Origin: Betaproteobacteria bacterium
GTDB taxonomy: Bacteria > Pseudomonadota > Gammaproteobacteria > Burkholderiales > SG8-41
Assembly: GCA_016192835.1 (NCBI GenBank)
Contig: JACPTJ010000107.1
Location: forward strand, 1-47,794
DNA length: 47,794 bases
Reading direction: 5' to 3'
Position 1 is the stretch's first letter, and the number at the start of each line of letters is the position of its first letter. The notes under the pieces were generated by a model. It was not told the origin of the DNA. It ran no database searches and saw nothing but the letters and a program-made list of their open reading frames with translations. Shown one piece after another: positions 25,219 to 47,794 of the stretch. Position numbers and translations under genes: made by a program.

Positions 25219-26568
25219 TCAGCTTTCCAGGGACAGGACCCAATGCGCCAATGCGCACAACTCTGCGTCCCGGCCGGCGCGACCGATCAGTTGCGCGCCT
25301 AGAGGCATGCCATCGGCCTCCATCACCGGCAGCGAGAATGCGGGCAGCCCGAGAAAGGTCGCATAGACGAGATAAGCGCGGCTGCCCGTGTGGCCATGCC
25401 CCACCGGCGCCGGCCCGGAGGCCGCCAGCGTCAATATCGCATCCGCTACGCCCATGACGTCGCGTGCCCGGTCTTTCATGCGCGTTTTTTCAGCGAGCAG
25501 TTCCGCGTAGTATTCCGCGCTCATCTCCCGGGCGCGTGCGAGCCGGTCGTGTACGCGCTGCTCGAGCCGATCTCCGTGCTGCGCGGCATATTGCTCGTAC
25601 GGCCATTTCATCTCATAGGACGTGATGTCGACCGAACGGTCGATGAATGTACCGAAGACTTCATCTTCGAATGCAGCGAAATGCGGATCGTCGCGGCGCG
25701 TGACGAGTTCGACCTCCCTCTCACGCAAGCGCTGCAGGAGCGCCTCGAATGCGGCGCGCGCAGGCGCCTCAACTTCGCTCTCCCACGTTTTCGTATGCAG
25801 TACAATGAGCTTGCGCGGCTTGCGGGCTGTCGGGAGCACAGCGCTTGCGCCCTGCAGTCCCGCTGCGCCGGGATTGCCGGAGGCGAGCGAAACGTGGGAG
25901 GCGACACACCAGGCATCGTCCAGCGTGCCGGCGATCACGCCGAGATGATCGTGCGTGAGCGATATCGGATGCACGCCCTGCATGGTGAGCACGCCGTGTG
26001 TCGGCTTAAAACCCACCGCGCCGCAGTAGGAAGCCGGCCGCAAGGTCGAGCCCTGCGTCTGCGTGCCGAGCGCGGCCGGGACCATGCCGGCGCCCACGGC
26101 AGCGGCCGAGCCGCTCGAGGACCCGCCCGGCGTGCGCGTGAGATCCAGTGGGTTCCGGGTCTCATTGGTGGCGCCGCAGGCAAAAGCGGTCGTGACCGTC
26201 TTGCCGACGACGATCGCGCCCCCTGAGCGCAATGCATGCACACACGCCGCGTCCCAGCGCGGCTGATTACCCGTATAAATGGAATTTCCCATCTGTGTCG
26301 GCAGGTCGCGGGTGTCCATGATGTCCTTGATGCCGACCGGCATGCCGTCGACTGCCGAAAGCGGCTTGCCGTCGCGATAGCGCCCGGCAGAAGCGTCGGC
26401 GGCGCGGCGCGCGCCTTCGAGCCCGAGCGTCACGAAGGCGTGCACTTGGGCGTCTCGCGCGGAGATCGTCGCTATGCGGCGCTCGAGGTATGCGCGCGGG
26501 TTGTCATCGCGTGAGAGAAATCTGGATCGCGCCTTCGAGAAGTCGAGCGCATGCGGGCTGCGGGCCAT
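25219..26568 (-). CDS. Amidase-signature enzyme (no small partner and no C-terminal extension)
   Basis: 449 aa, GAGGAA RBS, with 'GMPVGIKDIMD' and 'GGSSSGSAAAVGAG...GTQTQGSTLRPA'. Confidence 0.88.
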   Translation of the reverse strand: MARSPHALDFSKARSRFLSRDDNPRAYLERRIATISARDAQVHAFVTLGLEGARRAADASAGRYRDGKPLSAVDGMPVGIKDIMDTRDLPTQMGNSIYTGNQPRWDAACVHALRSGGAIVVGKTVTTAFACGATNETRNPLDLTRTPGGSSSGSAAAVGAGMVPAALGTQTQGSTLRPASYCGAVGFKPTHGVLTMQGVHPISLTHDHLGVIAGTLDDAWCVASHVSLASGNPGAAGLQGASAVLPTARKPRKLIVLHTKTWESEVEAPARAAFEALLQRLREREVELVTRRDDPHFAAFEDEVFGTFIDRSVDITSYEMKWPYEQYAAQHGDRLEQRVHDRLARAREMSAEYYAELLAEKTRMKDRARDVMGVADAILTLAASGPAPVGHGHTGSRAYLVYATFLGLPAFSLPVMEADGMPLGAQLIGRAGRDAELCALAHWVLSLES

Positions 26569-26590
26569 GGGTTCCTCGCTGGTTTACTGG

Positions 26591-26610
26591 ATACCGGTAG
26601 TCACCGGTAT
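26591..26610. promoter_or_regulatory. Perfect 20-bp palindrome in the Bug-amidase intergenic spacer
   Basis: ATACCGGT-AGTC-ACCGGTAT (8-bp arms) sits between the Bug stop (26651) and the amidase start (26568) on the minus strand. Confidence 0.4.
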
Positions 26611-26650
26611 GACGGCTTGCGCTATCGCAATGTCTGAACGGGTCGGCGCA

Positions 26651-27610
26651 CTAATTTGCGGTGATCCTGGCGGCTTTTACCACGTGCGCCCATTTCTTGA
26701 TTTCGGACTTGATATAGGCGTCGCTCGCAGTCAGCCCTTCGGCGACCGGCTCCAGTCCGATGCTCCCGAGCTTTTTCGTCACCTCCGGCGAGTGCAGAAT
26801 CTTGGTGACCTCGCCATTGAGGCGCTCGAGAACGGGGCGCGGCGTAGCCGAGGGTGCCAGCATCGCGTACCACACGTCTACGGCATACCCCGGAACGCCC
26901 GCCTCGGCTATGGTCGGAATGTCCGGCGCGGCTGCGGCGCGCCGGGTCCCGGCCGTTGCCAGCACCTTCAGCTTGCCGGCCTCGACATGCTGCCTGGTCG
27001 AGATGATGCTCGCGAACATGAGCGACACGCGCCCGGCGATGACGTCCGTCATGCCCGGACTGGTTCCCTTGTAGGGCACATGGGTGAGATCCGTTTTGGT
27101 CAGCACCTCCAGGTACTCGGTCGCCAGGTGGGAAGGGCTGGCATTGCCCGACGAAGCATAGTTGATCTCGCCGGGGCGCTTCTTCGCGTAGGCGATCAAT
27201 TCCTTGATCGACTTCACGGGCAGCGATGGATGGGCGACGAGGATGTTGGGTGCGTTGACCATGACGGTGACCGGAACGAGGTCGCGCTCGGGGCTGTACG
27301 AGAGATTCTTGTGGGAGCTTGGCAACACCGAGTGACTGATCGAAATGGTGAGCAGGGTATGTCCGTCGGCTGCGGACTTGGCGACGATGTCGCCGCCCAC
27401 CGCACCACCTGCACCTGGGCGGTTTTCAACGATGCCGGGCTGACCGAGCGATTCCTGCAGGTTCTGCGCGATGACGCGCGAGGTCGTATCGACCCCGCCT
27501 CCGGCTCCAGCCGCTGCGACGATGCGCACAGGTTTAGAAGGAAAACCCTGCGCGGTGGCTAACGCAGGCATGGCGAGCCAAAATATCAGTGCGTGCAGTA
27601 CGGGCTTCAT
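26651..27610 (-). CDS. Bug/TctC family periplasmic solute receptor
   Basis: The signal peptide 'MKPVLHALIFWLAMPALATA' is followed by 'QGFPSKPVRIVAAAGAGGGVD'. Also 'VENRPGAGG', 'YASSGNASPSHL' and 'VPYKGTSPG'. AGAAGGAGGG RBS. Confidence 0.88.
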   Translation of the reverse strand: MKPVLHALIFWLAMPALATAQGFPSKPVRIVAAAGAGGGVDTTSRVIAQNLQESLGQPGIVENRPGAGGAVGGDIVAKSAADGHTLLTISISHSVLPSSHKNLSYSPERDLVPVTVMVNAPNILVAHPSLPVKSIKELIAYAKKRPGEINYASSGNASPSHLATEYLEVLTKTDLTHVPYKGTSPGMTDVIAGRVSLMFASIISTRQHVEAGKLKVLATAGTRRAAAAPDIPTIAEAGVPGYAVDVWYAMLAPSATPRPVLERLNGEVTKILHSPEVTKKLGSIGLEPVAEGLTASDAYIKSEIKKWAHVVKAARITAN

Positions 27611-28161: not shown

Positions 28162-29407
28162 TTAAGCCGCCAGCTTGTAGGTCGTTTCACGATCAGCGTA
28201 TTTCCTTTTTCGCTGTTCACGCCGCTGCTCCTGTTGCCATAGGATAGCGCCGACGCGGTGAATATTTCTTGCCACCACGGCCAATGCAACATAGCGCTTG
28301 AATCCGTCGATGCCGTGATCCGGGCACCTGTCCAGTCCATGCACTTCGAGCGCGTTAATCGCTGATTCAACCGCCGAGTGGGCGCGCCTGGCCTTGAGGA
28401 ATGTTTCGGATTGCTCGGCTGCCTCCGCTGGTTGCGAGAGCTTGCCTTTTTGGGGCAATGCCGCCAGCTCCAGGAGTTCTTTCAATCCGGTCTGATTGGC
28501 TGGTGAATGAAAGCCTTTATCGAAGCTGCAGGCATTCAATTTCGGAAATCTCTTCTTGGCCTCCGCCACCATCGAAACGGTGACTTGATCATCGGTCTTC
28601 TTTTGCATCACTTGATGATGCAATATAAATTGATGCTGGTCTTCCAGGACACATACTTTGACCCCTAGTTCTACCGGAACACCGGCTTTGCCTTTGCTGA
28701 TCCATTCGGTGTGCGGCTCAAAGATCGAGAATACTTTCTCGCCATGCGGGATCGCTTCTCCCAGCATGACGCGGCGCTTCGTTTGGTCGATTTGGCGTAT
28801 CGCGTGTCGCATGAAGCCTTCAATCTCCAGCTTCTTCAGAACATCGAATTCGTCGGTTACCCGTTGCTCGAGCAGGGCCAGCGCCACGTGCGCTCTTTTC
28901 AGATAGCGCTCGGCAACCTCCAGGTACTCTTGACGCGCTTGGGCAATCAGCGTCGCGTTTCTCTTTTGCTGTTCTTCCGATTGGGCTTTGCTGCGCTTCT
29001 TGTTCTGGGCAGCGCGCATGAGCCGTTTGAGGTGCCTGACGTGGTAGGCGTGTTGCCGCCAGTCGCTCACCTCATGCTGTTCGCACCACTGCGCGGTCAG
29101 CGTGATGACTTTGCGCATCGCGTCATACAGCAGGTTGATATCGGTGGGGTAATGCACATTCGTTTCAACCACCAAGGAGTCGCACCGCCCACGCAGCGCT
29201 TCGCCTGCCTTTTTTTACCAGGGCATGCCCGCCATTGACCACTACCTGATTGATCTTGTCGAGCAGTTCCGGCGTGAGCAGAGGTCGGTGGCTTGCATCG
29301 CCATTACGAGCGGATGGCAGCATGACTTGGGGGCGACTCGCTGCGCCGAGTCGCGCGTACGAGTTTTCGGGAAGGACAACAGACCATACGTGAAGGCGCC
29401 AACACAC
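28162..29407 (-). pseudogene. DDE transposase (IS5/IS1182/ISNCY-like), frameshifted and 5'-truncated
   Basis: 'RCDSLVVETNVHYPTDINLL', 'SFDKGFHSP' and 'RRAHSAVESAINALEVHGLDRCPDHGIDGFKRYVALAVVARNIH'. The upstream part (29165..29407) is in another frame. The frames join across an A7 run (T7 on plus, 29210..29216), and an A6 run would restore '..LVKKAGEALRGRCDS..'. Confidence 0.8.
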
Positions 29408-29439: not shown

Positions 29440-30855
29440 CTACACGTACATTTTTACACTGCGATTCTCATTTGGATGCATCTTCACCCAGTCCGTCGCC
29501 TGTTCGTACGCGTGAGCAACGCGATAGATCAGCGCCTCGCTATAGGGCTTGCCGACGATCTGCATTGCCAGCGGCAGGCCGGTCTTGCTGAATCCTACCG
29601 GGACGGAAATCGCCGGGCTGCCGGTCACGTTAAACGGCGCGCGTGCCTGCCGGGCGTAGGTGTGCTCAATCGCCTGCGGGTTGTCGATGCGGCAAGCCGG
29701 GTCCATCGAGCTCGCTGTCACTGCCACATCCATATCGGCGAACAGCGCGTGGAACGTATCCGCCATCTTGCGGCGAATGCGCGTGGCGTTGACGTAGTCG
29801 GCCGCGCGGACAAAGGCTCCAGCCATCAGCCGCTCGCGGGCGAGCGCGCCGTAATCCTGCGACCGCTCGCGCATCCACTTCTCGTGGATCGCAAAAGCCT
29901 CGCTCGTGAGGATCGTGCGGTTGCAAGCGGCGTAGTCGCCAAGCGCGGCGGTGTCTATTTCGCGTACCTGCGCGCCGAGATCGGTCAGCAGCTTGACCGC
30001 CGCCTCGATTCCGGCCGTCATCTCCGCGTCGGCCTTCATGTCGCGCATGTAGAAGTGGCGGATCACGCCGACTCTGAGGCCCACCACGCCGCGGCCGAGC
30101 TCCGCGGTGTAGCCGCCCGTCGCGCAGTTGGCGCTGCCCGGGTCGAGCGGGTCGTGACCCGCAATCGCGTCCAGCATCAGCGCGTTGTCTCTCACCGTGC
30201 GGGTTAGAGGGCCGACATGGTCGAGGGAGAAAGCGAGCGGCATCACGCCGCGCCGGCTGACCACGCCGTACGTGGGCTTCATGCCGACGATGCCGCACAT
30301 CGAGGCGGGGTTGCGTATCGAGCCCCCGGTATCGGTGCCGACCGCCGCCGGCAGGAACCCGGCTGCCGTCGCGGAGCCGGAGCCGCTCGACGACCCGCCG
30401 CAGAAATGGTCGCGGTTCCAAGGGTTGCGCGCCGGCGGCCAGGGCAGGTCGAAGGACGGCCCGCCGATCGCGAACTCGTGGGCCGACAACTTGCCCATGA
30501 AGACACCGCCGGCCGCGCGCAGTTTCTGCGTCACCGCCGCGTCGGTCGCCGCGAGGTTATCCTGCAGGATTTTCGAATGCGCAGTGGTCGGCAGGCCGGC
30601 ATAGTCGACGATGTCCTTGAGGCCGTACGGCACGCCGTGGAACGGACCGCGCCAGTCGCCGCGCATGATCTCCACCTCGGCGCGACGCGCGTCCTCCAGC
30701 GCGAGCTCGGGGGTGACACGGAGGAAAGCATTGAAATCGCTGTCGTGCGTTTCGATGCGGTCGAGCAGTGCTTTGGCGTACTCGACAGGCGAGAGCTTCC
30801 TCGTGCGCAACAGCTCGGCTGCCTCGGCAACGGTGAGGTAGGCGAGATCCGTCAT
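29440..30855 (-). CDS. Amidase-signature enzyme (AtzE/GatA-like), large subunit of split pair 1
   Basis: 471 aa with 'GVPYGLKDIVD' and 'GGSSSGSGSATAAG...GTDTGGSIRNPA'. Its start codon lies inside the ATGA that ends the small ORF at 30852. Confidence 0.9.
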   Translation of the reverse strand: MTDLAYLTVAEAAELLRTRKLSPVEYAKALLDRIETHDSDFNAFLRVTPELALEDARRAEVEIMRGDWRGPFHGVPYGLKDIVDYAGLPTTAHSKILQDNLAATDAAVTQKLRAAGGVFMGKLSAHEFAIGGPSFDLPWPPARNPWNRDHFCGGSSSGSGSATAAGFLPAAVGTDTGGSIRNPASMCGIVGMKPTYGVVSRRGVMPLAFSLDHVGPLTRTVRDNALMLDAIAGHDPLDPGSANCATGGYTAELGRGVVGLRVGVIRHFYMRDMKADAEMTAGIEAAVKLLTDLGAQVREIDTAALGDYAACNRTILTSEAFAIHEKWMRERSQDYGALARERLMAGAFVRAADYVNATRIRRKMADTFHALFADMDVAVTASSMDPACRIDNPQAIEHTYARQARAPFNVTGSPAISVPVGFSKTGLPLAMQIVGKPYSEALIYRVAHAYEQATDWVKMHPNENRSVKMYV

Positions 30856-31058
30856 CGCTTGTCCTCCGCAGCGAGGTGGAAAACGTGAGCCGGCTCGTCG
30901 GCCGGCGTGATTTCCCCAAGCGGCAGCACCTTCCGGCGCGCGCGCGCTGTGTTCGTCGCGCGCAGCAGCTGCTGCAGATGCTCGTCCGCGAGGCGCGTCA
31001 TGCCGATCTCGGCGGCCATCCTCCTCACCTCGTCGAGCGTCAAGCTTTCGTTCACCAT
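30852..31058 (-). CDS. ~68-aa AtzG/GatC-like (DUF4089-like) amidase partner protein
   Basis: ATG 31058 is preceded by AAGGAG. 'MVNESLTLDEVRRMAAEIGMTRLADEHLQQLL...ADEPAHVFHL'. It has a 4-nt overlap with the amidase start. The ORF-track start is TTG 31076. Confidence 0.6.
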   Translation of the reverse strand: MVNESLTLDEVRRMAAEIGMTRLADEHLQQLLRATNTARARRKVLPLGEITPADEPAHVFHLAAEDKR

Positions 31059-31116
31059 GTGGTGTCTCCTTGGCAAGTTGTACCGGGAAGCGCTGATCGC
31101 ACGGGATGAGAAGCGG

Positions 31117-32079
31117 TCAGCTCGTAAAGCTCAGCTTCGCTTCCTTGACCACCCGCCGCCATTTCTCGACGTCGCGCTTGATCATCCCGTGGAACACATG
31201 GGATGCTCCCCCTATCGGCTCCATGCCGTCGTTGGCGAGCCGCTCCTTCATTTGAGGCGTCTCGAGCGATTTGTTCACTGCCGAATTCCAGCGGCGGACG
31301 ACCTCCGCGGGCAGGCCTTTCGGCCCCATCACGCCGTAAACGATCACCGCCTCGTAACCGGGAACCGTGTCAGCGATGGTCGGCATCTCCGGAAGCGCGC
31401 TCACCCGTTGAGCGGTGGTGACCGCGATTCCGCGCAGCCTGCCCGCTTTGACGTGAGGCACGGTCGACGGCATGCTGCCGAACATCATCTCGACCTGATT
31501 GCCGAGGAGCGCAGTGAGTGCGGGACCGGTGCCTTTGAACGGAATGTGCATCATGCGGATGCCCGCCATGAGGCCGAAGAGCTCCGTGGCCAGATGCGTG
31601 ATGGCGCCTGTGCCGCTCGACCCGTAGTTGAGCTTGCCGGGATTCGCTTTCGCAAAAACAATGAGCTCACTCGTCGTCTTGATCTGCACGGCCGGATGCA
31701 CCGCGACGACGAAGCCGGCACCGCCGATGGCGATCACTGCCTGCACGTCGTTGACCGGGTCGAACGACAACTTGTAAATGGCCGCGTTGGTCCCATAACC
31801 CGATACCAGGCCGAGGGTATAACCGTCGGGGGTTGCGCGCACGATCATTTCTTCCCCGATATTGCCTCCGGCACCGGGGCGGTTGTCGACGACGACGGAC
31901 TGGTCAAAGGACTGCGACATCTGCTGCGCCATGACGCGTGCCACGATATCCGTGCCTCCGCCTGCGCGAACGGAATGATCAATCGCACGGGCCGGGTGGG
32001 ATACTGCTGCGCGAAATACAACGCCCGCGCTCGGCAACGCGCTGAACAGCAACAGGCACGATGCTATGGCCAATTTCAT
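31117..32079 (-). CDS. Bug/TctC family receptor with a compensated double frameshift in the N-terminal signature
   Basis: The ORF is intact, with 'VDNRPGAGGNIG', 'YGSSGTGAITHL' and 'IPFKGTGPA'. The expected 'FAQQYPTRPVRLIIPFA' is encoded only in the +1 frame of 31965..32015. The ORF frame reads 'FRAAVSHPARAIDHSVRA' there. Confidence 0.8.
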   Translation of the reverse strand: MKLAIASCLLLFSALPSAGVVFRAAVSHPARAIDHSVRAGGGTDIVARVMAQQMSQSFDQSVVVDNRPGAGGNIGEEMIVRATPDGYTLGLVSGYGTNAAIYKLSFDPVNDVQAVIAIGGAGFVVAVHPAVQIKTTSELIVFAKANPGKLNYGSSGTGAITHLATELFGLMAGIRMMHIPFKGTGPALTALLGNQVEMMFGSMPSTVPHVKAGRLRGIAVTTAQRVSALPEMPTIADTVPGYEAVIVYGVMGPKGLPAEVVRRWNSAVNKSLETPQMKERLANDGMEPIGGASHVFHGMIKRDVEKWRRVVKEAKLSFTS

Positions 32080-32114
32080 GAGTTCCTCCGTTCCAGGTTT
32101 TCCGTAGAAGACAT

Positions 32115-32166
32115 AGGAAAATCAATACACCCGTCGCCAGGGTTCTGTGCCAATGCAACGCTGCAG
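32115..32166 (+). repeat. 52-nt IS terminal repeat (left end), inverted relative to 35643..35694
   Basis: AGGAAAATCAATACACCCGTCGCC...CTGTGCCAATGCAACGCTGCAG matches the reverse complement of 35643..35694 at 43 of 52 positions (hand count). Confidence 0.75.
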
Positions 32167-32272: not shown

Positions 32273-32476
32273 ATGCCGAAGAACATCGACCCGCAGGCCG
32301 TGAGGCGTCTCGCCGCGCAACTGCGCGGCCTGGAGGTGACCGAAGAACGCGCCGCGCAGCTCGCCATCGAGATTGCGCGGGTGAACGAGGCCGCGCGCGC
32401 CGAAGGCGCGAAGAACGATTTCAACGACCAGCCCACGAACTTCGCGGTCACCCTGGCTGTGCTCGCAAAGCGATGA
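32273..32476 (+). CDS. 67-aa AtzG/GatC-like (DUF4089-like) amidase partner protein
   Basis: GAGGAG RBS. 'MPKNIDPQAVRRLAAQLRGLEVTEERAAQLAIEIARVNEAA...NDQPTNFAVTL'. The stop TGA (32474..32476) overlaps the amidase ATG at 32473. Confidence 0.6.
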   Translation: MPKNIDPQAVRRLAAQLRGLEVTEERAAQLAIEIARVNEAARAEGAKNDFNDQPTNFAVTLAVLAKR

Positions 32477-33885
32477 GCGCCGACCTCCTGAACATGAGCC
32501 TGTGCGAGGTTGCGCAGGCGATACGGCGCAAGCGCGTGTCCTCGCTGGAAGTGACGCGCGCCTGTCTCGCGCGCGCGAAGGCGGTGCAACCGACCGTGAA
32601 CTGCTTCATCGCGATCGAGGAGGACGAGGCGCTGCGCGCCGCGCGCGCGGCCGACCGCGCGGTGAAGCGCGGTGCGAAGCTCGGCTCGCTGCATGGTGTC
32701 CCGCTCGCCCACAAGGACATGTTCTACCGCGCCGGGCGCGTCTCCACCGGGGGCAGCAAGATCCTGCGCGACTACCGTCCGACCGTCACGGCGACGGTCG
32801 TCGAACGGCTGGCGGCGGCCGGCGCGATCTGGCTCGGCAACCTCAACATGGCCGAGTTCGCCGCCAATCCAACCGGACACAACGAGCACTGGGGCGATTG
32901 CTGCAATCCGTGGAACACCGCGCACATCACCGGCGGGTCGTCGAGCGGTTCGGGCGCGGCGGTGGCGGCGCGAACGTGCTACGGCTCCCTCGGTTCAGAC
33001 ACTGGCGGCTCGATACGGCTGCCCGCGGCGGCGAACGGCGTCGTCGGCCTCAAGCCGACCTACGGCCGCGTGAGCCGCCATGCCATCCTCCCGCGCGTCT
33101 GGTCGCTGGACACCGTGGGCCCGCTCACGCGGACGGTGCGCGACTGCGCCCGGATCACGGCCGTCATCGCCGGCGCCGATCCGCTCGACCCGACTGCGAG
33201 CGCGCAGCCGGTGCCGAACTACGAGCGTCTGCTCGATCGCCGGATTCGCGGATGGAAGATCGGCGTGCCGCGCAACCACTTCTACGACGGCATCGCCGAG
33301 GACGTGCGCCGGGCCATGGAGGAGAGCCTCGCGGTGTTGCGATCGCTCGGCGCGCGCATCATCGAGCTCGACGTCCCGGACCCGCAGCACACCTACCAGC
33401 TCACCAACGCCATCGGCCAAGTCGAATCCGCGACGATCTACGCCAACTGGCTGCGGGAGCGGCCGCAGGATTTCTCGCTGGTGGTGCGCACGCGCACGGA
33501 AGCCGGCATGCTCGTGCCGGGGGTGAGTTACCTGGAAGCGCTCAATGCGCGGCCTCGCATCGCCGCCGAGTTCGTCCGCCAAGTGTACGGCACCGTCGAC
33601 GCCCTGCACGCGCCGGTCATGACGATGCCCGTGCCGACGCGCGCCGAGACGACGCCCGGGGGATCGGGCGAGGTCATGGACATGCTCGCGCGGCTCACCC
33701 ACAACACGCGCCCGATCAATTTTCTCGGGCTGCCTTCGCTCGCGGTGCCGGCGGGCTTCGCGGACAACGGCCTGCCCGTCGCCTTCCAGCTGATCGGTCG
33801 ACCGTTCGCCGAAGACGTGCTCCTCCGGATCGGGGATGCCTTTCAGGCGGAGACCGACTGGCACGCGCGCGCGCCGACGTCCTGA
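32473..33885 (+). CDS. Amidase-signature enzyme (AtzE-like), large subunit of split pair 2
   Basis: 470 aa. This is the in-frame C-terminal part of the artefactual 992-aa track ORF. 'GVPLAHKDMF' and 'GGSSSGSGAAVAAR...GSDTGGSIRLPA'. Confidence 0.9.
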   Translation: MSADLLNMSLCEVAQAIRRKRVSSLEVTRACLARAKAVQPTVNCFIAIEEDEALRAARAADRAVKRGAKLGSLHGVPLAHKDMFYRAGRVSTGGSKILRDYRPTVTATVVERLAAAGAIWLGNLNMAEFAANPTGHNEHWGDCCNPWNTAHITGGSSSGSGAAVAARTCYGSLGSDTGGSIRLPAAANGVVGLKPTYGRVSRHAILPRVWSLDTVGPLTRTVRDCARITAVIAGADPLDPTASAQPVPNYERLLDRRIRGWKIGVPRNHFYDGIAEDVRRAMEESLAVLRSLGARIIELDVPDPQHTYQLTNAIGQVESATIYANWLRERPQDFSLVVRTRTEAGMLVPGVSYLEALNARPRIAAEFVRQVYGTVDALHAPVMTMPVPTRAETTPGGSGEVMDMLARLTHNTRPINFLGLPSLAVPAGFADNGLPVAFQLIGRPFAEDVLLRIGDAFQAETDWHARAPTS

Positions 33886-39908: not shown

Positions 39909-41273
39909 ATGACGGATACGACGATCGCGCGGATCGCAGACTTCGCGAACACGTTACAGTTTTCTGACATACCCGTACACGTATCACATGACTGCAAGAG
40001 GCGGCTGATAGACACTTTCGCTTGCGGTCTCGCTGCACACTATCAGCTGCCTTGTGGTATTGCGCGGAGCGTTGCGCTGCGCGTGAAGGTGCCAAATGGA
40101 TCGTATGTCTTGGGTACCGCGCTCAAAACTCTGCCGGAACTCGCGGCGTTCGCTAACGGTGTAATGGTGCGCTATCTGGACGGTAATGATGCCTATCCAG
40201 GTGGGGGAGGGCATCCGAGCGACGTGATCCCCGCTGTGCTGGCCGCAGCAAATATCAATAAGAGGTCCGGGAAGGATGTAATAACCGCCGTGACACTTGC
40301 GTACGAGGTCTTTTATAACTTTCGTCAGGCCGCCTGCATGCGTGACCGCGGCATGGATCATGTTTTCTATACTGCTGTTGGTAGTGCAATCGGCGCCGCG
40401 AGACTGATGTCACTAAGCCGGGAACAACTGGCGAACGCCATTTCGCTCGCAATTACTCCCAATATTGCTCTGCACGCGACACGGCGTGGACATCTCTCTA
40501 TGTGGAAAGGATGCGCGGCTGCGAATGCGGCTCGCAACGGCACATTCGCCGCCGTCCTTGCCGCCCAGGGCATGACTGGCCCCGACCATGCAATCGAAGG
40601 GTCACATGGGTTGCGAGAATTGGTAGGTAGCTTTGAATTTCCACCGTTGCCTGGTCCTGGGCGGCCATTTAAGCTTCCCGAAGCTCAAATGAAGTACTTC
40701 CTTTCAGAATCCCATTCGCATGCCCCCATCACTGCGGCGCTAGAACTGCATCGTCAGGTAACGGCCGATGACATCAAAGACATCACGATTTACACCTATT
40801 GGTTCGCGTGGAGCGAAATCGGCAGTGAAAGGGAGAAATGGCGGCCTGCCACTCGGGAAACCGCTGACCATAGTCTGCCGTACATCGTGGCTGCGGTGCT
40901 GTTAGATGGTCATTTTGGTGATGAAATATTCTCCGATGAGCGATTGCAGGATGAAAAGATTCATCGACTCGCTGATAAGATAATCGTCAAAGAGGATCCG
41001 GAATTATCGCGGCAATTTCCGGAAAAGTATCCCTGTCGGATTGAAATAACCACAAGAAGTGGAAATACGATAACAGCCAGCGTCGAGTATCCACGCGGTC
41101 ATCATAAGAATCCGATGACAGACGAGGAAGTAAGTGACAAATTCCGAAGCCTCGCTGGCCGAGTTCTACCCAAAAAACAAGTAGAGCAGGCGCTTACCTT
41201 GCTGTGGAAGATCGAAGAGGCATCCGATCTCGAACCGCTGTTTGAAATGGTGAACATCGACCGAAATACATGA
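39909..41273 (+). CDS. MmgE/PrpD family protein, paralog 4 (closest to paralog 3)
   Basis: 454 aa with 'FANGVMVRYLDGNDAYPGGGGHPSD' and 'TADHSLPYIVAAVLLDG'. It is visibly AT-richer than its neighbours in the 3' half. Confidence 0.88.
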   Translation: MTDTTIARIADFANTLQFSDIPVHVSHDCKRRLIDTFACGLAAHYQLPCGIARSVALRVKVPNGSYVLGTALKTLPELAAFANGVMVRYLDGNDAYPGGGGHPSDVIPAVLAAANINKRSGKDVITAVTLAYEVFYNFRQAACMRDRGMDHVFYTAVGSAIGAARLMSLSREQLANAISLAITPNIALHATRRGHLSMWKGCAAANAARNGTFAAVLAAQGMTGPDHAIEGSHGLRELVGSFEFPPLPGPGRPFKLPEAQMKYFLSESHSHAPITAALELHRQVTADDIKDITIYTYWFAWSEIGSEREKWRPATRETADHSLPYIVAAVLLDGHFGDEIFSDERLQDEKIHRLADKIIVKEDPELSRQFPEKYPCRIEITTRSGNTITASVEYPRGHHKNPMTDEEVSDKFRSLAGRVLPKKQVEQALTLLWKIEEASDLEPLFEMVNIDRNT

Positions 41274-41340
41274 ATGGCTAACCGCCCGCAGACTGGCCTA
41301 GCGCTCCTGCTGAACCAATAGCGGCAGGTGCCGCTGGCGC

Positions 41341-41793
41341 CACGCCGGGTTCTCGGCGCATCACGAGGTGAGCGTGACAGCCGAGGATGTCGAGGGGAGA
41401 AAGAAACTCGCCGGCTACATGCTGCGCGCTCCGATGTCCCTGGAGAAGTTGAGCTACGACGCGGCCACGGGCACGGTGATCTATCGCTCGAAGATGCATG
41501 CCGGCCTCAAGCGCAACTTCCAAGTCATGCCGGGCGTCGCGTGGTTGACGTTGCTCTGCGAACACATTCCCGACCGCTACGTGCGCCTGGTGCGTTATAT
41601 GGGGGTGTTACTCGAACCGCGCCCGGGGCGAGCGGGCAAAAACAGTTTTCACGCAAGCCGGTGCCGAGCGTGGAGCCGGCGACGGAATTTACGGCTCGCG
41701 CAAAAGCCGCTTGGGCGCGGCGCATTCGAAAAAAACGCTTCGGAGCCGCCGGGGTGCGGGAAAGAGCTTGCTTCGCTTTGGTGCCTGGAATAG
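41341..41793 (+). pseudogene. C-terminal fragment of an IS91-family (HUH/Y2) transposase
   Basis: In-frame 'HAGFSAHHEVSVTAEDVEGRKKLAGYMLRAPMSLEKLSYD...YRSK...LLCEHIPDRYVRLVRYMGVL' matches IS91-family C-terminal regions. There is no N-terminal or catalytic part. Confidence 0.7.
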
Positions 41794-41861
41794 ATTACTC
41801 GGTAATTTGGCATAGCATCAAAGAAACAATTCCAAGTTCGTGAAATCAGAGGAGGCGAAAA

Positions 41862-42839
41862 ATGTCCCGCCCGTCGTGCTGTTTTTCTGCTGCTGCATTG
41901 GTGGCTTTGGCAGGTTGGCCTTCCATAGCCGGTTCGCAGCAGTTTCCGGAAAGACCCGTTCGGATGATCGTGCCTTACCCGCCCGGCGGCGGTTCCGATC
42001 TGGTTGCGCGACTGATCGGCAAGGAACTCGCCGAAAAATGGGGCAAGTCCGTCATCATCGACAACAGGCCGGGCGGTGACGGGGCAATAGGCGCCGGCAT
42101 CGCCAGCACCACGCCCGCCGATGGGCATACGCTGCTCCAGATCATCCTGACGCATGCCGTGCTGCCCAGTATGAAGGATAGCCTGCCCTACGACCTGCTC
42201 CGGGACTTTGCGCCGATAACCCGCACGATGGATACCCCGAACCTCGTCGTGGTGCATCCTTCGCTGCCCGTGAATTCGATCAAGGAGCTAGTTGCGCTGG
42301 CGAAGCAGCAACCGGGCAAGGTGAACTACGCGATATCGGGCATCGGCGGCCCATCGCATCTCTCGGGCGAATTCTTCAACCAGCTTGCCGGCACGAAAAT
42401 GACGTACATCCCGTACAAAGGCGCGGGGCCGGCGATGATCGATCTGCTCGGTGGGCATGTGAAGCTCGCTTTCCCCACAGTCCCCAGCGGCATTCCGCAC
42501 GTGCGCTCCGGCAAGCTGCGCGCGCTCGCAATCACGAGCGCAACGCGGCTGCCGTTGTTGCCTGCCCTGCCCACCGTCGCAGAGGCGGGCGTCAAGGGAT
42601 ACGAATTTTCCGCGTGGTTTGGATTGGTCACCCGCGCGGGCACACCGCGCAGGGTGGTGGAGCAGCTCAATGCCGATATCACGTCGGTGCTCCACGCCGA
42701 GAATATCAGGACGGTCCTGATCAATGAGGGGGCCCAGGTCTTGAGCGACACCCCCAGGGAATTCACTGCATTCCTCGATGCCGAGCTGAAGCGGTGGGGG
42801 CGTCTGGTTAAGGAGGCAGGCTTGAAAGGCAAGGAATAG
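41862..42839 (+). CDS. Bug/TctC family periplasmic solute receptor
   Basis: AGAGGAGG RBS. 'SQQFPERPVRMIVPYPPGGGSD', 'IDNRPGGDG', 'YAISGIGGPSHL' and 'IPYKGAGPA'. Confidence 0.88.
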   Translation: MSRPSCCFSAAALVALAGWPSIAGSQQFPERPVRMIVPYPPGGGSDLVARLIGKELAEKWGKSVIIDNRPGGDGAIGAGIASTTPADGHTLLQIILTHAVLPSMKDSLPYDLLRDFAPITRTMDTPNLVVVHPSLPVNSIKELVALAKQQPGKVNYAISGIGGPSHLSGEFFNQLAGTKMTYIPYKGAGPAMIDLLGGHVKLAFPTVPSGIPHVRSGKLRALAITSATRLPLLPALPTVAEAGVKGYEFSAWFGLVTRAGTPRRVVEQLNADITSVLHAENIRTVLINEGAQVLSDTPREFTAFLDAELKRWGRLVKEAGLKGKE

Positions 42840-42909
42840 TCCTTCGGCGCCCGAGACACTCGAATTTAGCTATCCAGTTCGATAGAACGCTTAAGAAAAG
42901 GAGAAGGTA

Positions 42910-44061
42910 ATGGGGCAAGCGAAGAACGGCGGCGCATGCGTGACGCTGGCAGGCTGTGGTGACATAGGCACTGGACATACGCCTCCGGAGAGCGCGTTTA
43001 CCCATGTGGCCGACGCGTTGCGCCTAGCCGATTTCCGCTTCGCGCAGTGCGAGAAGTTGTATTCCGAGAAAAAGAACTACCAGGTGCACAGCGGCGCGCT
43101 GAATCTGGAGGCACTCAAGGCGCCGCAGACTGCGGCGGCGTTCAAAACCGTGCCGTTCAACGTCTTGTCGCTGGCCTCCAACCATATCGGAGACTGGGGA
43201 CCCGAGGCCGTCGAAGGCACGGTGGAAACGTTCCGCGCGCTGGGAATCCCCACCATCGGCGCCGGCCGCAACATCGACGAGGCGCGCAAGCCCGTCATTC
43301 TTGAAAAGAATGGCTTGAAGATCGGGTTCCTCGGGTATTGCTCGGTGCTGCTGCCGCAGTTCTGGGCGACGGAAAAACGCGCCGGCGCGGCGCCCCTGCG
43401 GGCGTACACCTATTACGAGCCGTACGAATACCAGCCGGGATCGCCCGCCCGCGTAATCACGGTCCCCGACAAAGACGACCTGGAGTACCTCGTCGAGGAC
43501 GTGCGGAAGCTGAAGCAGATGGTCAACGTCGTGGTCGTGTCCCTGCACTGGGGTCTGCACTATGTCACCCAGCCGCAGGACTACCAGCCTATCGTCGCCC
43601 ACGCCGCGATCGACGCCGGGGCCAGCGTCATACTCGGTCATCACGCCCACCAGCCCCAGGGGATAGAGATCTACAAGGGCGCGATCATCTTCTACAGCAT
43701 CGGCAACTTCGTGTTTCACCGCCGCGGGGGCGGCCCGGCCCCGTGTATGCCTGGCGAGAAATACACGCACAAGGAGATCTACTCGAAGGAGGTGGATCCC
43801 GGGCATTACTACGACTACCGCCGTCACTGGGCCGAAAGCGGCATTCCCTATCTGAAGCTCGACCGCGCCGGCCTGCGCGAAGCGACTTACCTGCCCACCT
43901 TCCTGGATGCGGAAGGGCGGCCGGAAATCCTGACGCTCGACAATCCCCAATTCGAAAAATCGCGCGTGTATCTCGAGTGGCTCGCAAAAGACGTCAACGG
44001 CGGGATCACGAATATTCCGGCCCGCGACGGGCGCTATTGTCTCTACGAGCGGAAGAGCTGA
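42910..44061 (+). CDS. CapA/PGA_cap family metallophosphoesterase-like protein, paralog 2
   Basis: AAAGGAGAAGG RBS. 383 aa with 'SLASNHIGDWG', 'VVVSLHWGLHY', 'ILGHHAHQPQG' and 'YSIGNF'. No signal peptide or anchor. Confidence 0.85.
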   Translation: MGQAKNGGACVTLAGCGDIGTGHTPPESAFTHVADALRLADFRFAQCEKLYSEKKNYQVHSGALNLEALKAPQTAAAFKTVPFNVLSLASNHIGDWGPEAVEGTVETFRALGIPTIGAGRNIDEARKPVILEKNGLKIGFLGYCSVLLPQFWATEKRAGAAPLRAYTYYEPYEYQPGSPARVITVPDKDDLEYLVEDVRKLKQMVNVVVVSLHWGLHYVTQPQDYQPIVAHAAIDAGASVILGHHAHQPQGIEIYKGAIIFYSIGNFVFHRRGGGPAPCMPGEKYTHKEIYSKEVDPGHYYDYRRHWAESGIPYLKLDRAGLREATYLPTFLDAEGRPEILTLDNPQFEKSRVYLEWLAKDVNGGITNIPARDGRYCLYERKS

Positions 44062-44210
44062 AAGCGGCGGGGGCGCGGCTGCACCGCTGCAAAATATTAT
44101 GGCACTACAAAACGATTTGCCGAACCACGTGCAATGAAATCCGGCACTTACGTGCGCTCACCTGCGGTTTTGGGGTGAATCATGTTAAAGATAGGTTAGA
44201 GCGGAGTTAT

Positions 44211-44375
44211 GAACCACTTGCCACGCACCGAGTATTTTCCCTGAGCGTTGCGTAGTATTATTCATTTCGGGCGCCGATGAAGTCTTTGGAACCTCGATCT
44301 TGCCAGCAATGGCCGCCCATCTCTACCCGATTCGGCGGTTAATCCCGCTCAGGCGGGGAGTTTTGCAAGAAGCTC
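44211..44375 (+). repeat. ~165-bp direct repeat, copy A (copy B is at 47240..47402)
   Basis: The 3' 107 nt (GGGCGCCGATGAAG...TTTTGCAAGAAGCTC) differ from copy B at 4 positions (hand count). The 5' ~55 nt are more diverged and contain indels. It ends 33 nt before the Bug ATG at 44409. Confidence 0.85.
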
Positions 44376-44408
44376 CCTTTTGAACACTACTTGACCATTG
44401 GAAATGCG

Positions 44409-45377
44409 ATGAAAACCTCCGCGAAAATCTGCCTGATGGCGGCGCTGCTGTTCGTATGGGGCTTGGCGCTGGCGCAAAATTACCCAACGCAGCCGATCCG
44501 CATGCTGGTGCCTTTCACGCCAGGCGGCGGCACGGACATTTCGGCTCGCGTCGTCGGGCAGAAAATGACCGAGGCACTCGGCCAGCAGATCGTCATCGAC
44601 AACCGCGTGGGGGCCTCCGGCCACATCGCAATGGAAATCACCGCGCGTGCAGCACCGAACGGCTATACGCTCATCATGAGCACCGTGGCCCCGATGGCGT
44701 TCAGCCCGGCCCTGTTTTCATCCTTGCCCTTCCATCCGGTCAAGGACTTCACGCCGGTGGCGCTCGTGTCCAGCACTGTCTTCGCGATCATTGTTCATCC
44801 CAGCCTGCCCGCGAAATCGGTCAAGGAGTTGATCGCGCTCGCGAAGGCGCAGCCGGGAAAGCTAACGTTCGGGTCGGGTGGAGCGGGCGGAGCATCGCAC
44901 ATTGCCACTGAGCTGTTTCAGTTGATGGCTGGAATCAATATGGTGCACGTGCCTTACAAAGGCGGCGGCGCGGCAATTCCCGCGGTGATGGGCGGTGAGG
45001 TCTTCCTGTATTTTGCAGACGTCATCGCGGCGCGGCAACTCGTCGCGGGCGGGAGGCTTCGCGCGCTCGGCGTCACCAGCGCACGCCGTTCGGCGATAAT
45101 GAGCGACTTGCCTACCATCGCCGAAGCGGGCCTGCCCGGCTACGAAATGACCTCCTGGAATGGCGTGCTCGCGCCGGCGGGCACGCCGCGTCCTATCGTC
45201 GACCGCCTCAATGCCGTGATCGTGCGCATTTTGCCGCTGCCGGATGTCGCGGAACGGCTCGCAGGGGACGGCAGCGAGTTCGGCAAGAACACGCCGGAGC
45301 AGTTCGCTGCTTTCGTGCGTTCTGAATACACCAAATGGCGCAAGATCATTCAAACCGCGAAGATCAAAATCGAGTGA
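44409..45377 (+). CDS. Bug/TctC family periplasmic solute receptor
   Basis: 'MKTSAKICLMAALLFVWGLALA' is followed by 'QNYPTQPIRMLVPFTPGGGTD'. Also 'IDNRVGASG' and 'VPYKGGGAA'. The track start is TTG 44391. Confidence 0.88.
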   Translation: MKTSAKICLMAALLFVWGLALAQNYPTQPIRMLVPFTPGGGTDISARVVGQKMTEALGQQIVIDNRVGASGHIAMEITARAAPNGYTLIMSTVAPMAFSPALFSSLPFHPVKDFTPVALVSSTVFAIIVHPSLPAKSVKELIALAKAQPGKLTFGSGGAGGASHIATELFQLMAGINMVHVPYKGGGAAIPAVMGGEVFLYFADVIAARQLVAGGRLRALGVTSARRSAIMSDLPTIAEAGLPGYEMTSWNGVLAPAGTPRPIVDRLNAVIVRILPLPDVAERLAGDGSEFGKNTPEQFAAFVRSEYTKWRKIIQTAKIKIE

Positions 45378-45405
45378 AGGAGCCGACGCGCGCGTCGCCG
45401 CAATC

Positions 45406-47052
45406 ATGACTGTCGACCTGGCTTTCATAAACATTGCCGAAGCAGCGCAGCTCATCGCTGCGCGCAAGCTGTCCCCCGTCGAGTACACCGATGCGCTGCT
45501 TGCGCGCATCGGAACGTTCGAGCCGCAGCTGAACGCTTTCATCACGATTACCGCCGACCTTGCGCGCACGCAGGCGCGACTGGCGGAAGCCGAAATCATG
45601 GCGGGCCGCTACCGCGGCCCGCTGCACGGCATACCGTTCGCGTTGAAAGACATCTACGACACCAGGGGAATACTCACCTCTGGCGGCTCCAAAGTCGGCC
45701 TCGGCAACATCCCGGCCAGGGACGCCACCACCACGCGGATGCTGAACGATGCCGGCGCGGTGCTGCTCGGCAAACTGCAGACGCACGAGTTCGCGCTCGG
45801 GGGGCCGTCGTTCGACCTTCCGTGGCCACCGTCGCGCAATCCGTGGCACCTCGAGCATTTCACCGGCGGATCAAGCAGCGGCTCCGGCGCGGCGCTCGCG
45901 GCGGGATTGATACCCGCGTCGCTCGGCTCCGACACCGGCGGCTCCATCCGCGGCCCGGCATCGTTTTGCGGTCTCGCCGGGCTGATGCCGACCTCGGGCT
46001 TGGTGAGCCGCGCCGGCGTGATTCCCAACTCGTTCACATTCGATCACTGCGGGCCGATGGCGCGCACGGTAGAAGACTGCGCAATCCTGCTGCAGGCGAT
46101 TGCCGGCTACGATCCACTGGACGCCGGTAGCATCCCGAGCGAGATCCCGAACTATCGCGCGGCGTTGAGCGGTGGCATAAAAGGGCTGCGCATCGGCGTG
46201 TTGCGCCACTACTGGGAAGAGGACTTTCCGACGCATCCCGATCTCAAGCGTGCGATGGAAGAAGCCATCGAAGTGTTCAAACAACTCGGTGCAGTAGTCG
46301 AGGACTGCCGCACGCGACCGCCGCGGGATTCGTTCGATACCAAGATCGTCATTGCAGAAAGCGAAATCTATTCGATCCACTACGCCAATCTGAAGTCGCG
46401 CCCCGGCGATTTCGGCCGCGACTTCCTCGGCCGCAGCTTGTTCGCGTGCCTGTTCCAGGCCTCCGACTATGTGCAGGCTTCGCGCGAGCATCGATGCATC
46501 ATTGCGGAGATGCGACCGCTTTACGAAAAATACGACGTGCTGCTCACCATAGGCTTCGGCCCCGCGCCGCGGCTGGACGAGCACAAGACTGCCAACTTCC
46601 TGCAGAAACCGCACGCTTTCACGCCAGCGAACGTGACCGGCGGCCCGTCGCTCGCGATTGCCAACGGTTTCAGCAACGGGCTGCCGCTGGGCATGCAGAT
46701 CATCGGACGGCCATTCGACGAGGCAACCGTGTTGCGCGTCGGCCATGCCTACCAACAGGCGACCGACTGGCACACGCGCCATCCGCGACTCGTGTCCGGT
46801 GCAGCGCAGCCCGCGGTCACGCCTAAGGGCAACGAACCGGTGGCAGCGGACCTCGATGCTGCGACGCGTGACTTCGTATTGAGTACCGCACGCCGCGCAG
46901 GTCTCAACCTCGACGAATATCAGGCAGCGATCTTGCTGGAAACTGCGCCGTTCGCTTTGGCCATTGCAGAGCGCGTGCGTAAACCGCGCAGCCGCTCGGA
47001 AGAACCGGCGCTCGTGTTTCGCTTTCCCAATACAGCTACACCCAGTGGCTGA
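45406..47052 (+). CDS. Amidase-signature enzyme (GatA/AtzE-like) with a ~95-aa C-terminal partner-like extension
   Basis: ATG 45406 gives 'MTVDLAFINIAEAAQLIAARKLSPVEY', collinear with the paralog N-termini. 'GIPFALKDIY' and 'GGSSSGSGAALAAG...GSDTGGSIRGPA'. The tail is '...LDAATRDFVLSTARRAGLNLDEYQAAILL...RSEEPALVFRF'. The track ORF start 45244 overlaps the Bug gene. Confidence 0.88.
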   Translation: MTVDLAFINIAEAAQLIAARKLSPVEYTDALLARIGTFEPQLNAFITITADLARTQARLAEAEIMAGRYRGPLHGIPFALKDIYDTRGILTSGGSKVGLGNIPARDATTTRMLNDAGAVLLGKLQTHEFALGGPSFDLPWPPSRNPWHLEHFTGGSSSGSGAALAAGLIPASLGSDTGGSIRGPASFCGLAGLMPTSGLVSRAGVIPNSFTFDHCGPMARTVEDCAILLQAIAGYDPLDAGSIPSEIPNYRAALSGGIKGLRIGVLRHYWEEDFPTHPDLKRAMEEAIEVFKQLGAVVEDCRTRPPRDSFDTKIVIAESEIYSIHYANLKSRPGDFGRDFLGRSLFACLFQASDYVQASREHRCIIAEMRPLYEKYDVLLTIGFGPAPRLDEHKTANFLQKPHAFTPANVTGGPSLAIANGFSNGLPLGMQIIGRPFDEATVLRVGHAYQQATDWHTRHPRLVSGAAQPAVTPKGNEPVAADLDAATRDFVLSTARRAGLNLDEYQAAILLETAPFALAIAERVRKPRSRSEEPALVFRFPNTATPSG

Positions 47053-47239
47053 TGATCGCGACCGGAAAGCAGTGCCCTTTGTAGGGGTTGGCAGGCAAGA
47101 CACAATGCGAGATATTCGTCGCCCCATCAAATCACGATGGCGGCAAGTTGACAATGCCATTCCAGCGTATGAACCATCTTCTCCAGTTCCCGTGTCAGCG
47201 AACCCACTTTCGATTTCAATTCAGGCATCAACTCATCCT

Positions 47240-47402
47240 GAACCACTTGCCACTGAAAGTTGCATTTTCCCTGAGCGTTGCGTAGCATTCGTCTCGGGCG
47301 CCGATGAAGTCTTTGGAAACTCGATCTTGCCAGCAATGGCCGCCAATCTCTATCCGATTCGGTGGTTAATCCCGCTCAGGCGGGGAGTTTTGCAAGAAGC
47401 TC
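47240..47402 (+). repeat. ~165-bp direct repeat, copy B
   Basis: See copy A. It ends 47 nt before the ATG at 47450 of the next MmgE/PrpD gene. Confidence 0.85.
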
Positions 47403-47449
47403 AATAATAAATAAGTCTTCTGATTAAATTGTTCGCAAGGTAGATATTC

Positions 47450-47794
47450 ATGAATTTATCGACGTCCCGGACCCCTGGCATACATCCCGATCATGGGAAG
47501 AAAGGCGGTATTACAACCATGGGACCCTCAGACGCTCAAACCACAATCAGAGTTGCCGAACTGGTTTGTAAAACGAAGCTGAATCAGATCCCCCGCGAAG
47601 TGATTGACTACAGCAAGAGTCTGGCCCTCAGCGCCCTTGGCGGCATGGTATCAGGCGCACAAATTCCCAGCTGCAAGATCGTCACTCGATACGTCCAGCG
47701 TATGGGGGGGAACCAGGAGGCCACCGTAGCCGCCTCCGGCTTCAAGACTTCTGTCGAGAACGCTGCCTTGGCCAACAGCCATTTCGCCCACACC
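47450..47794 (+). CDS. MmgE/PrpD family protein, paralog 5, 3'-truncated by window edge (not in the ORF track)
   Basis: My translation from ATG 47450 is 'MNLSTSRTPGIHPDHGKKGGITTMGPSDAQTTIRVAELVCKTKLNQIPREVIDYSKSLALSALGGMVSG...ENAALANSHFAHT', open to the window end. It carries the typical MmgE/PrpD N-terminus. The true start may be ATG 47519. Confidence 0.75.
   Translation, partial: MNLSTSRTPGIHPDHGKKGGITTMGPSDAQTTIRVAELVCKTKLNQIPREVIDYSKSLALSALGGMVSGAQIPSCKIVTRYVQRMGGNQEATVAASGFKTSVENAALANSHFAHT

Follow-up and report, generated by a model that had tools for sequence, protein, structure and literature searches.

We analysed the right half (25-48 kb) of JACPTJ010000107.1, a 47,794-nucleotide contig referred to throughout as the window, in which genes for Bug/TctC receptors stand beside genes for amidases, PrpD-family enzymes and a CapA protein. 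We find that this stretch is probably normal chromosome of a Bug-rich lineage: a mosaic of six small receptor-plus-enzyme modules, separately inherited and reshuffled. The gene content, the short gaps inside modules, the conservation of the modules in other genomes and their reshuffling were all observed directly, and sequence comparison indicates that the structural differences from relatives coincide with insertion sequence (IS) relics and repeats.

The window is contig C58 in its full length, and no other contig of this metagenome-assembled genome (MAG) is longer; the MAG comprises 5.14 Mb in 586 contigs (86% complete, 5.65% contamination, GC content 62.3%). In the labels used below, G000 is this genome, G001-G040 are the comparison genomes of the genus, C denotes a contig and L a compared locus. 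Genes were called by Pfam and NCBIfam profile searches of the open reading frames (ORFs) of the window, and genome counts were obtained with hidden Markov models (HMMs) built from the window's own proteins and run on all six-frame ORFs of G000. The comparison genomes belong to different species and are mostly fragmented MAGs, in which long-range synteny is poorly measurable. Loci homologous to window genes come from groundwater, soil, sediment and palsa samples, and the DNA comes from an uncultured lineage of Burkholderiales that lives in groundwater or soil.

The gene order and strands given in a preliminary description of the window, made from the sequence alone, were confirmed for all genes by the Pfam and NCBIfam searches. 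The right half resolves into these units:
25219..27610, minus strand: module 1, with Bug_26651 (26651-27610), then 82 nt, then an amidase (25219-26568).
29440..32079, minus strand: module 2, with Bug_31117 (31117-32079), a 74-aa ORF (30852-31076) and an AtzE/GatA-like amidase (29440-30855; Pfam).
32273..33885, plus strand: module 3, with a 67-aa ORF (32273-32476) and an amidase (32473-33885), and no Bug gene of its own.
35758..41273, plus strand: module 4, with two PrpD genes (35758-37131 and 37191-38558), Bug_38330 (~38582-39547) and PrpD_39909 (39909-41273).
41862..44061, plus strand: module 5, with Bug_41862 (41862-42839), then 70 nt, then CapA (PGA_cap; 42910-44061; Pfam).
44391..47052, plus strand: module 6, with Bug_44391 (44391-45377), then 28 nt, then a 548-aa amidase (45406-47052; Pfam).
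47450..47794, plus strand: the 5' part of a further PrpD gene (Pfam), cut by the contig end; it continues in the independent MAG contig JACPEC010000335.1, and its orthologue in the metagenome contig L155 is 87% identical at the amino acid level.

Same-strand genes inside the modules are separated by 23-82 nt or overlap at ATGA, as do the small ORF and the amidase of module 2; a 361-nt gap separates Bug_38330 from PrpD_39909 in module 4. Both genes of module 1 match their Pfam families well (PF03401, E 2e-72 for the Bug; PF01425, E 9e-68 for the amidase), and the TctC domain is full-length in the five Bug genes between 25 and 48 kb (230-258 bits, with a cut-off of 27). The claim that every amidase in the window lies beside a binding-protein gene needs two qualifications, on amidase 18331, which adjoins an ABC-type SBP_5 protein and not a Bug, and on amidase_32473 (Pfam match at 32548-33825), whose only neighbouring Bug gene is the divergently transcribed Bug_31117. 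The 548-aa amidase, previously called fused, does have a C-terminal extension of ~100 residues, but the likeness of this extension to a free small ORF is not significant (BLAST E 0.085; nothing in Pfam). The small ORFs of 67 and 74 aa matched no Pfam or NCBIfam family and did not match each other by BLAST, and the terms 'partner' and 'fused' are therefore justified only by where the sequences lie and by the conservation of their linkage. For the amidases the nearest solved structures are GatA and AtzE (6c62), for the PrpD proteins they are 2-methylcitrate dehydratase, IDS epimerase and IRG1, and CapA comes nearest to a poly-gamma-glutamate synthesis protein; all of these are distant.

No two paralogues inside the window share more than 65% amino acid identity, and for most of them the nearest paralogue lies on a different contig. 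The array is thus not the product of recent local duplication, and recent tandem duplication was rejected as its origin. Orthologues in other species are closer than these paralogues (75-89%). Several of the modules are kept intact elsewhere, on different contigs and with different neighbours. The Bug_26651 and amidase_25219 pair of module 1 is intact in G015:C67, G007:C555 and G024:C6 at 58-71% amino acid identity, and the order Bug, small ORF, amidase of module 2 is kept in G018:C392 at 69/64/82%. The pair of module 3 follows a Bug gene in G018 (84/89%) and in G024 (63/78%), and the Bug proteins upstream of the amidase_32473 orthologue in these two genomes are merely 43% identical. Orthologues of PrpD_39909 in G015:C16 and G031:C170 (85%) are surrounded by different Bug genes, and the Bug_41862 and CapA pair is intact in G015:C142 and G031:C579 (77/83%) within another neighbourhood. 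The 548-aa amidase of module 6 is conserved at 62-85% in 80 loci, and a Bug gene lies directly adjacent in 30 of the 53 loci of other species that could be evaluated, with the identity and side of the Bug varying; in G015 the orthologues of Bug_44391 and of this amidase are on separate contigs. Taken together, the window's modules are spread over six contigs in G015, several of them 35-45 kb long.

Between and beside the modules lie relics of mobile elements and copies of three repeats, R1, R2 and R3:
28162..29175, minus strand: ISNCY-family transposase relic (NCBIfam NF033593, E 2e-113, profile positions 139-443 of 444).
32108..32166, minus strand, inverted with respect to 35465-35700: solo 3'-terminal fragment of R2 (59 nt, 80% identity; R2 positions 204-255 by BLAST).
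33886..35757, no strand assigned: zone of mobile-element debris with an ORF stub, an IS110 fragment, a 344-nt element and a full R2.
34034-34400: the unclassified ORF stub of the debris zone.
34449-34775: the N-terminal fragment of IS110 (E 3e-30).
35127-35470: the 344-nt element, with 33-nt inverted ends (inverted-repeat detection).
35465-35700: the full copy of R2, 96% identical to window positions 16254-16476.
41297..41861, plus strand: R3, an IS91-like relic with a weak NF033538 match at 41368-41793 (E 8e-5).
44210..44375, plus strand: R1 copy a, ~165 nt, with a short hairpin followed by a T-run.
47239..47402, plus strand: R1 copy b, 90-93% identical to copy a.

The IS debris of the preliminary description was in part as proposed, with clear ISNCY and IS110 relics and a weak IS91 match; the supposed IS ends turned out to be termini of R2, a repeat similar to miniature inverted-repeat transposable elements (MITEs), and not of a recognised IS. 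The direct repeats reported on either side of a Bug and amidase pair are the two copies of R1. The ISNCY relic lacks its first ~138 residues and has a GC content of 0.52-0.55; there is no second copy in the G000 assembly, and a 75% identical (amino acid) copy of the transposase adjoins Bug genes in G036:C30. Within the debris zone, window positions 34821-35104 are 94% identical to a piece of G004:C101.

The locus is not invariant across relatives: the modules differ in presence or arrangement in both G018 and L155. Contig G018:C392 carries Bug, small ORF, amidase, Bug', small ORF, amidase and Bug'', all on one strand. Against this order the first module of the window is inverted and Bug' is absent, and the breakpoints of the inversion hold the ISNCY relic on the left and the 59-nt R2 3'-end fragment on the right. 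L155 (ORJL010175211.1) is 93-98% identical to the window at the nucleotide level and shares a backbone of PrpD_39909, IS91 relic, Bug_41862, CapA, a slot and PrpD_47450. Upstream of window position 39782 it has Bug, B12-binding and MutL-family genes instead of PrpD-PrpD-Bug, and it lacks 41297-41492 and 41551-41755 of the IS91 relic as well as 42086-42879, which is most of Bug_41862. In the slot, 44086-47394 of the window (R1, Bug_44391, amidase, R1) is replaced by 1.26 kb with a different Bug gene; homology returns at the last bases of R1 copy b, and the left breakpoint lies ~125 nt outside R1 copy a. As a separate observation at L155 445-2301, the PrpD_39909 orthologue stands directly after these B12-binding and MutL-family genes, which are GlmS/GlmL-like and have 67-74% DNA identity to G000:C223:5487-7214; the arrangement may link PrpD_39909 to B12-mutase operons elsewhere in G000.

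These rearrangements bear out the earlier picture of accumulated and shuffled modules in so far as a module swap in L155, an inversion relative to G018, and breakpoints at IS relics or repeats are concerned. The accompanying notion of a recombination hot spot fared less well. The left half of the window and contig C559, taken as a Bug-rich control, likewise consist of 1.5-5-kb blocks that are conserved and shuffled between species; both are equally fragmented, so that greater fluidity of the right half cannot be shown.

Contamination of the MAG, its division into 586 contigs and its patchy GC content would be compatible with the juxtapositions being an artefact of metagenome assembly or binning, and the contig a chimera. 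We consider this extremely unlikely, since the independently assembled JACPEC010000335.1 is 99.8% identical and collinear over window positions 27019-47794 (20.8 kb), which excludes an assembly chimera. Logan contigs from five sequencing runs also match the window at 100%, contigs of such identity occur in the groundwater runs of the SRR121134xx series, and the low-GC PrpD stands beside the normal-GC CapA in L155 as well. All of these Logan contigs end at 44109 and three start at 41613, which suggests the contig ends that repeats or co-existing variants give in an assembly graph. Between the window and JACPEC010000335.1, 24 of the 43 differences fall into three patches beside module boundaries (38571-38645, 39563-39581 and 47498-47653), a clustering that suggests imported recombination or gene-conversion tracts.

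Some of the genes have decayed. By eye, the mature N-terminus looks intact in four of the five Bug genes, the exception being Bug_31117, in which two compensating frameshifts ~50 nt apart (window 31950-32030, minus strand) scramble ~17 conserved residues; the QQYPTRPVRLIIPFA stretch is lost and can be read in another frame. The lesion is identical in the independent 99.8% assembly and is therefore real; it is probably crippling. Decay is also present at 24741-25143, between an ABC operon and amidase_25219, where a ChsH2/DUF35-type gene is frameshifted such that its zinc ribbon and OB fold lie in different frames.

The repeats at the junctions belong to three unrelated dispersed families, scattered over many contigs of G000 and its sister genomes. 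R1 has 13 copies in G011 and three in G000 and is rare or absent in each of the other 26 genomes of the genus, and R2 is present (~235 nt) in 27 copies in G011, 21 in G004 and 10 in G000, with none in 19 of 28 genomes; copies of R3 at 86% identity occur on C61 and in G011 and G004. Such patchy copy numbers among sister species fit bursts of small non-autonomous elements and not recombination sites specific to cassettes. A dedicated, integron-like cassette system with R1, R2 or R3 as its recombination sites would account for the two R1 copies that flank exactly one Bug and amidase unit, a unit for which L155 has other DNA with one breakpoint where R1 copy b ends, and for the placement of R2, whose 3' end lies 5-85 nt upstream of a same-orientation ORF of at least 270 codons in ~17 of 27 copies (loci L114-L142). 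We nevertheless regard such a system as highly improbable. No recombinase or integrase domain was found in any ORF of C58, the modules lie on both strands, and the repeats are unrelated to one another, abundant only in G011, G004 and G000 as in MITE bursts, and mark only some of the junctions: 39548-39908 has neither a repeat nor an IS relic, and the left L155 breakpoint lies outside R1 copy a. The cassette boundaries of the preliminary description are accordingly not recombination sites of one system.

R2 nonetheless has features that may concern expression. It carries a near-invariant TTGACT-18-CATAAT/CATGAT, present in the window copy as TTGACT-18-CATAAT at 35502-35531, and its ends show an imperfect inverted match of merely ~11 nt, seen by eye. 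The ORFs downstream of R2 include 11 Bug and two PrpD genes, and the others include an amidohydrolase and an FMN dehydrogenase. MITEs, repetitive extragenic palindromic (REP) elements and other small dispersed repeats can carry outward promoters, and from its motif and placement R2 may be a mobile promoter element. A structured RNA of the riboswitch kind was considered and rejected, as R2 shows neither covariation (-0.02 kcal/mol over 22 copies) nor a stable fold (z-score -1.8, not better than shuffles), and has no Rfam match. In R3, a conserved block of ~80 nt at ~41727-41807, upstream of Bug_41862, contains a promoter-like TTGCTT-17-TAGATT behind an A-run and a GC hairpin; seven copies of this block were aligned (window, C61, C442, C127, C375, C453 and C124), and a five-member cluster of upstream regions that carry it (window, C61, C124 and two on C453) precedes Bug genes. 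A single leader common to Bug genes genome-wide was rejected, as an all-against-all BLAST of 403 upstream regions gave small clusters only. The largest has 35 members and includes Bug genes 3' of R2 copies.

The base composition of the right half is patchy, as had been judged by eye. The standard deviation (SD) of GC content in 1-kb windows is 0.042, against 0.030 genome-wide, and by this measure C58 comes 11th among the 44 long contigs. PrpD_39909 and amidase_32473 carry foreign composition. In PrpD_39909 the GC content at third codon positions (GC3) is 0.54, or 3.4 SD under the mean of the family, with 0.49 in the 3' half; GC3 is also low in L155 (0.52) and is 0.76 in the 85% identical orthologues of G015 and G031. 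In amidase_32473 it is 0.90, against 0.77-0.80 in orthologues, and module 3 as a whole has values of 0.84-0.90. These are the only two GC3 outliers among 39 genes, and most genes are genome-typical. Together with the several IS relics, the inverted R2 termini that bracket 32108-35701 and a mean GC content of 0.605 against 0.623 for the genome, this patchiness could be taken to mean that the right half arrived en bloc as a horizontally acquired island or composite transposon. We judge that to be very unlikely and rejected it. Neither an integrase nor a conjugation gene was found on C58, the window has no tRNA and no match to an Rfam family, and the closest relatives of each module are within the same genus. 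There is no pair of intact IS, only a single truncated ISNCY, IS110 and IS91-like element each; what stands inverted at 32108-32166 and 35643-35701 is a pair of R2 ends; and the left half and other contigs look alike.

We then placed the window in its genome. G000 carries 435 Bug/TctC ORFs, 18 amidases, 82 PrpD and 10 CapA genes by the window-derived HMMs, and a Pfam search gave 452 first-look Bug candidates and 17 amidases. Bug genes thus amount to ~85 per Mb and roughly 9% of genes. TctA genes number only ~10-11, with none on C58, which makes nearly all of the Bug receptors 'orphans'. Ten Bug genes lie on C58, five of them between 25 and 48 kb, which places the contig 6th of 44 long contigs for Bug density. 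The left half is no poorer in Bug genes: it has five of them, along with PrpD, CapA, aconitase and CoA-transferases. Its tandem Bug array also contains a 330-aa ORF (window 9113-10105) with no TctC match and faint matches to SsuA/phosphonate-binding models, which may be a divergent binding protein. Adjacency of enzyme and receptor is widespread as well: outside C58, 34 of 77 PrpD genes (44%), three of 13 amidases and two of eight CapA genes lie within 300 nt of a Bug gene, compared with 3.8% of random 1.3-kb intervals. Genus-wide family numbers are first-look candidates and a rough proxy only (for G000, 452 candidates against 435 verified Bug genes); on that footing the TctC count per genome ranges from 197 to 995, the latter in the 5.7-Mb G005.

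The observation that the 47.8 kb hold no LysR, IclR, GntR or TetR regulator was correct, and profile searches of the genome found no LysR, IclR, GntR, TetR, MarR, AraC or receiver domain on C58, nor is there a helix-turn-helix (HTH) ORF in the intergenic gaps of the window. The whole 5.1 Mb, however, holds just 35 such one-component regulators (20 LysR, four IclR, six GntR, two TetR, one MarR and two AraC) beside 88 receiver domains, a very low number of such regulators for a Burkholderiales genome of this size. A Poisson estimate gives a probability of ~0.74 that 48 kb are without LysR, IclR, GntR and TetR, so that a regulator-free stretch is the expected outcome, and by the first-look proxy no genome of the genus has more than 62 LysR candidates. 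The missing regulator is a genome-wide property and not a local one. In a further observation from G000, a 623-codon open frame at C153:58-1926 (minus strand) has a 3'-damaged Bug domain running into a GntR/FadR-type regulator gene; a true Bug-GntR fusion is disfavoured, and it is most likely a damaged Bug gene with a lost stop codon reading into the next gene. What had been ranked as a system-like local array therefore reflects Bug-enzyme adjacency, Bug density and lack of regulators that are genome- and genus-wide.

The local peculiarity of the stretch is its enzyme content, and not its Bug density or the regulator gap. C58 is 0.9% of the genome, yet it carries five of 17 amidases (0.16 expected), two of 10 CapA genes (0.09 expected) and five of 82 PrpD genes (0.76 expected). 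This excess goes beyond Bug density and is the first of several points that count against the view of an unremarkable mosaic, as some local accumulation or selection for linkage is possible. The statement that the stretch is no more fluid than elsewhere is based on one control contig (C559) plus the left half, the direction of each rearrangement (the ancestral state) is inferred from few genomes, and both the sharing of TctAB and the substrate link between Bug and enzyme come from family literature.

In its strongest form, selection for linkage would hold the modules together as one extended catabolic pathway or regulon, a functional supra-operon in which, for example, carboxylated amides are hydrolysed to polycarboxylates that are then processed by PrpD-family enzymes. 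The over-representation of amidases, PrpD and CapA on C58 is what this would predict, the aconitase, CoA-transferases and further CapA and PrpD genes of the left half could be added to such a pathway, and the backbone PrpD-Bug-CapA-slot-PrpD is common to the window and L155. We think it unlikely all the same: in G015, G031, G018, G002 and others the modules are scattered over separate contigs and flanked by over 10 kb of unrelated sequence; in the window they lie on both strands with dead IS between them; Bug_31117 is scrambled and Bug_41862 is mostly deleted in L155; and no shared regulator or operator was found.

In the reshuffled mosaic, ordinary recombination has assembled the modules, turned and exchanged some of them and worn others away in part. 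Their junctions carry decayed ISNCY, IS110 and IS91-like elements plus at least three unrelated MITE-like repeats, and dedicated capture machinery was not found. Each module pairs its receptor with one or two cytoplasmic enzymes: an amidase-signature enzyme, with or without a small AtzG-like subunit, a PrpD/MmgE-family enzyme or a CapA-like protein. By analogy with the literature on these families, each periplasmic Bug would bind one carboxylate-bearing solute and either deliver it to a shared TctAB unit encoded elsewhere or signal through a two-component system, and the adjacent cytoplasmic enzyme would transform the same solute. Control would probably lie with distant two-component systems (~88 receiver domains) or with unregulated promoters, some perhaps borne by repeats.

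A bolder proposal, which we offer tentatively and hold to be rather less probable than not, is that no other prokaryotic gene family may be known to have expanded as densely as the Bug receptors of this genus, with minimal one-component regulators, and that its interchangeable modules are moved and swapped by small repeats and wired into expression by mobile promoters, such as the sigma-70-like one of R2, and not by dedicated regulators. For the window itself, recognising that a striking 'cassette array' is what a Bug-rich genome ordinarily looks like spares the pursuit of a non-existent system. The stretch also provides a sequence-level example of exchange of orphan tripartite tricarboxylate transporter (TTT) receptors and their enzymes, with one module replaced, one inverted and one deleted at mobile-element scars. 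This widespread groundwater and soil lineage has as many receptor genes as the published record holder, in a far smaller genome and with an unusually small regulator set, which lends urgency to the question of whether orphan receptors serve transport or sensing; the conserved receptor-enzyme pairs lend themselves to ligand screening and make that question easier to test. The gene counts of the lineage, its scarcity of regulators and the promoter-bearing repeats are worth following up. The window itself is an instance of the known over-representation of Bug/TTT receptors.

Among known systems, integron arrays are alike in having short modules separated by repeats, one of which is replaced between close relatives. 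Unlike integrons, the window has neither an integrase nor an attC-like common site, its modules lie on both strands, and each comes with a receptor gene and probably with promoters of its own. The repeats R1 and R2 resemble MITE/REP-type elements in their length (165-235 nt), multiple copies and patchy occurrence among sister species, but the terminal inverted repeats are weak, and R2 is strongly biased to sit just upstream of sense ORFs.

The amidase pairs of modules 2 and 3 are comparable to the 1-carboxybiuret hydrolase AtzE-AtzG of Pseudomonas sp. ADP (PDB 6c62/6c6g) and to GatA-GatC, in that an ORF of 67-74 aa overlaps the amidase start (ATGA). The catalytic subunit is an amidase-signature enzyme (PF01425, E 1e-107; 6c62, E 1e-68), and the small ORF, conserved with its amidase in G018, G003 and G024, fits AtzG/GatC in position, size and ATGA overlap, with no family match. 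The NCBIfam AtzE models give the 45406 amidase ~278 bits, far below their equivalog/subfamily cut-offs of 425-461, and unlike AtzE-AtzG the window pairs are coupled to a TTT receptor gene.

The closest parallel is provided by the orphan TTT receptors that are over-represented in Bordetella, Cupriavidus and Rhodoplanes (Rosa et al. 2018, PMC5994714; review PMC5812351). The published extreme is Rhodoplanes sp. Z2-YC6860, whose 434 Bug/TctC genes in 8.2 Mb (~53 per Mb) were called unprecedented (PMC5994714); in the literature library searched, we found no later paper that exceeds this number. As in those genera, G000 has hundreds of TctC genes and a handful of TctA/TctB genes, the receptors are spread genome-wide, often in tandem or beside catabolic enzymes, and the array paralogues are old, with the nearest paralogue usually elsewhere. 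G000 is denser than Rhodoplanes, with 435 genes in a 5.1-Mb, 86%-complete MAG. A transcription factor lies near 64% of the Bug genes of R. eutropha and 16% of those of Rhodoplanes, and the mechanism of TTT family expansion has so far been argued from identity statistics only (PMC5994714); G000 differs from both in being poor in transcription factors, and here the swapping of modules is seen directly, at MITE and IS scars.

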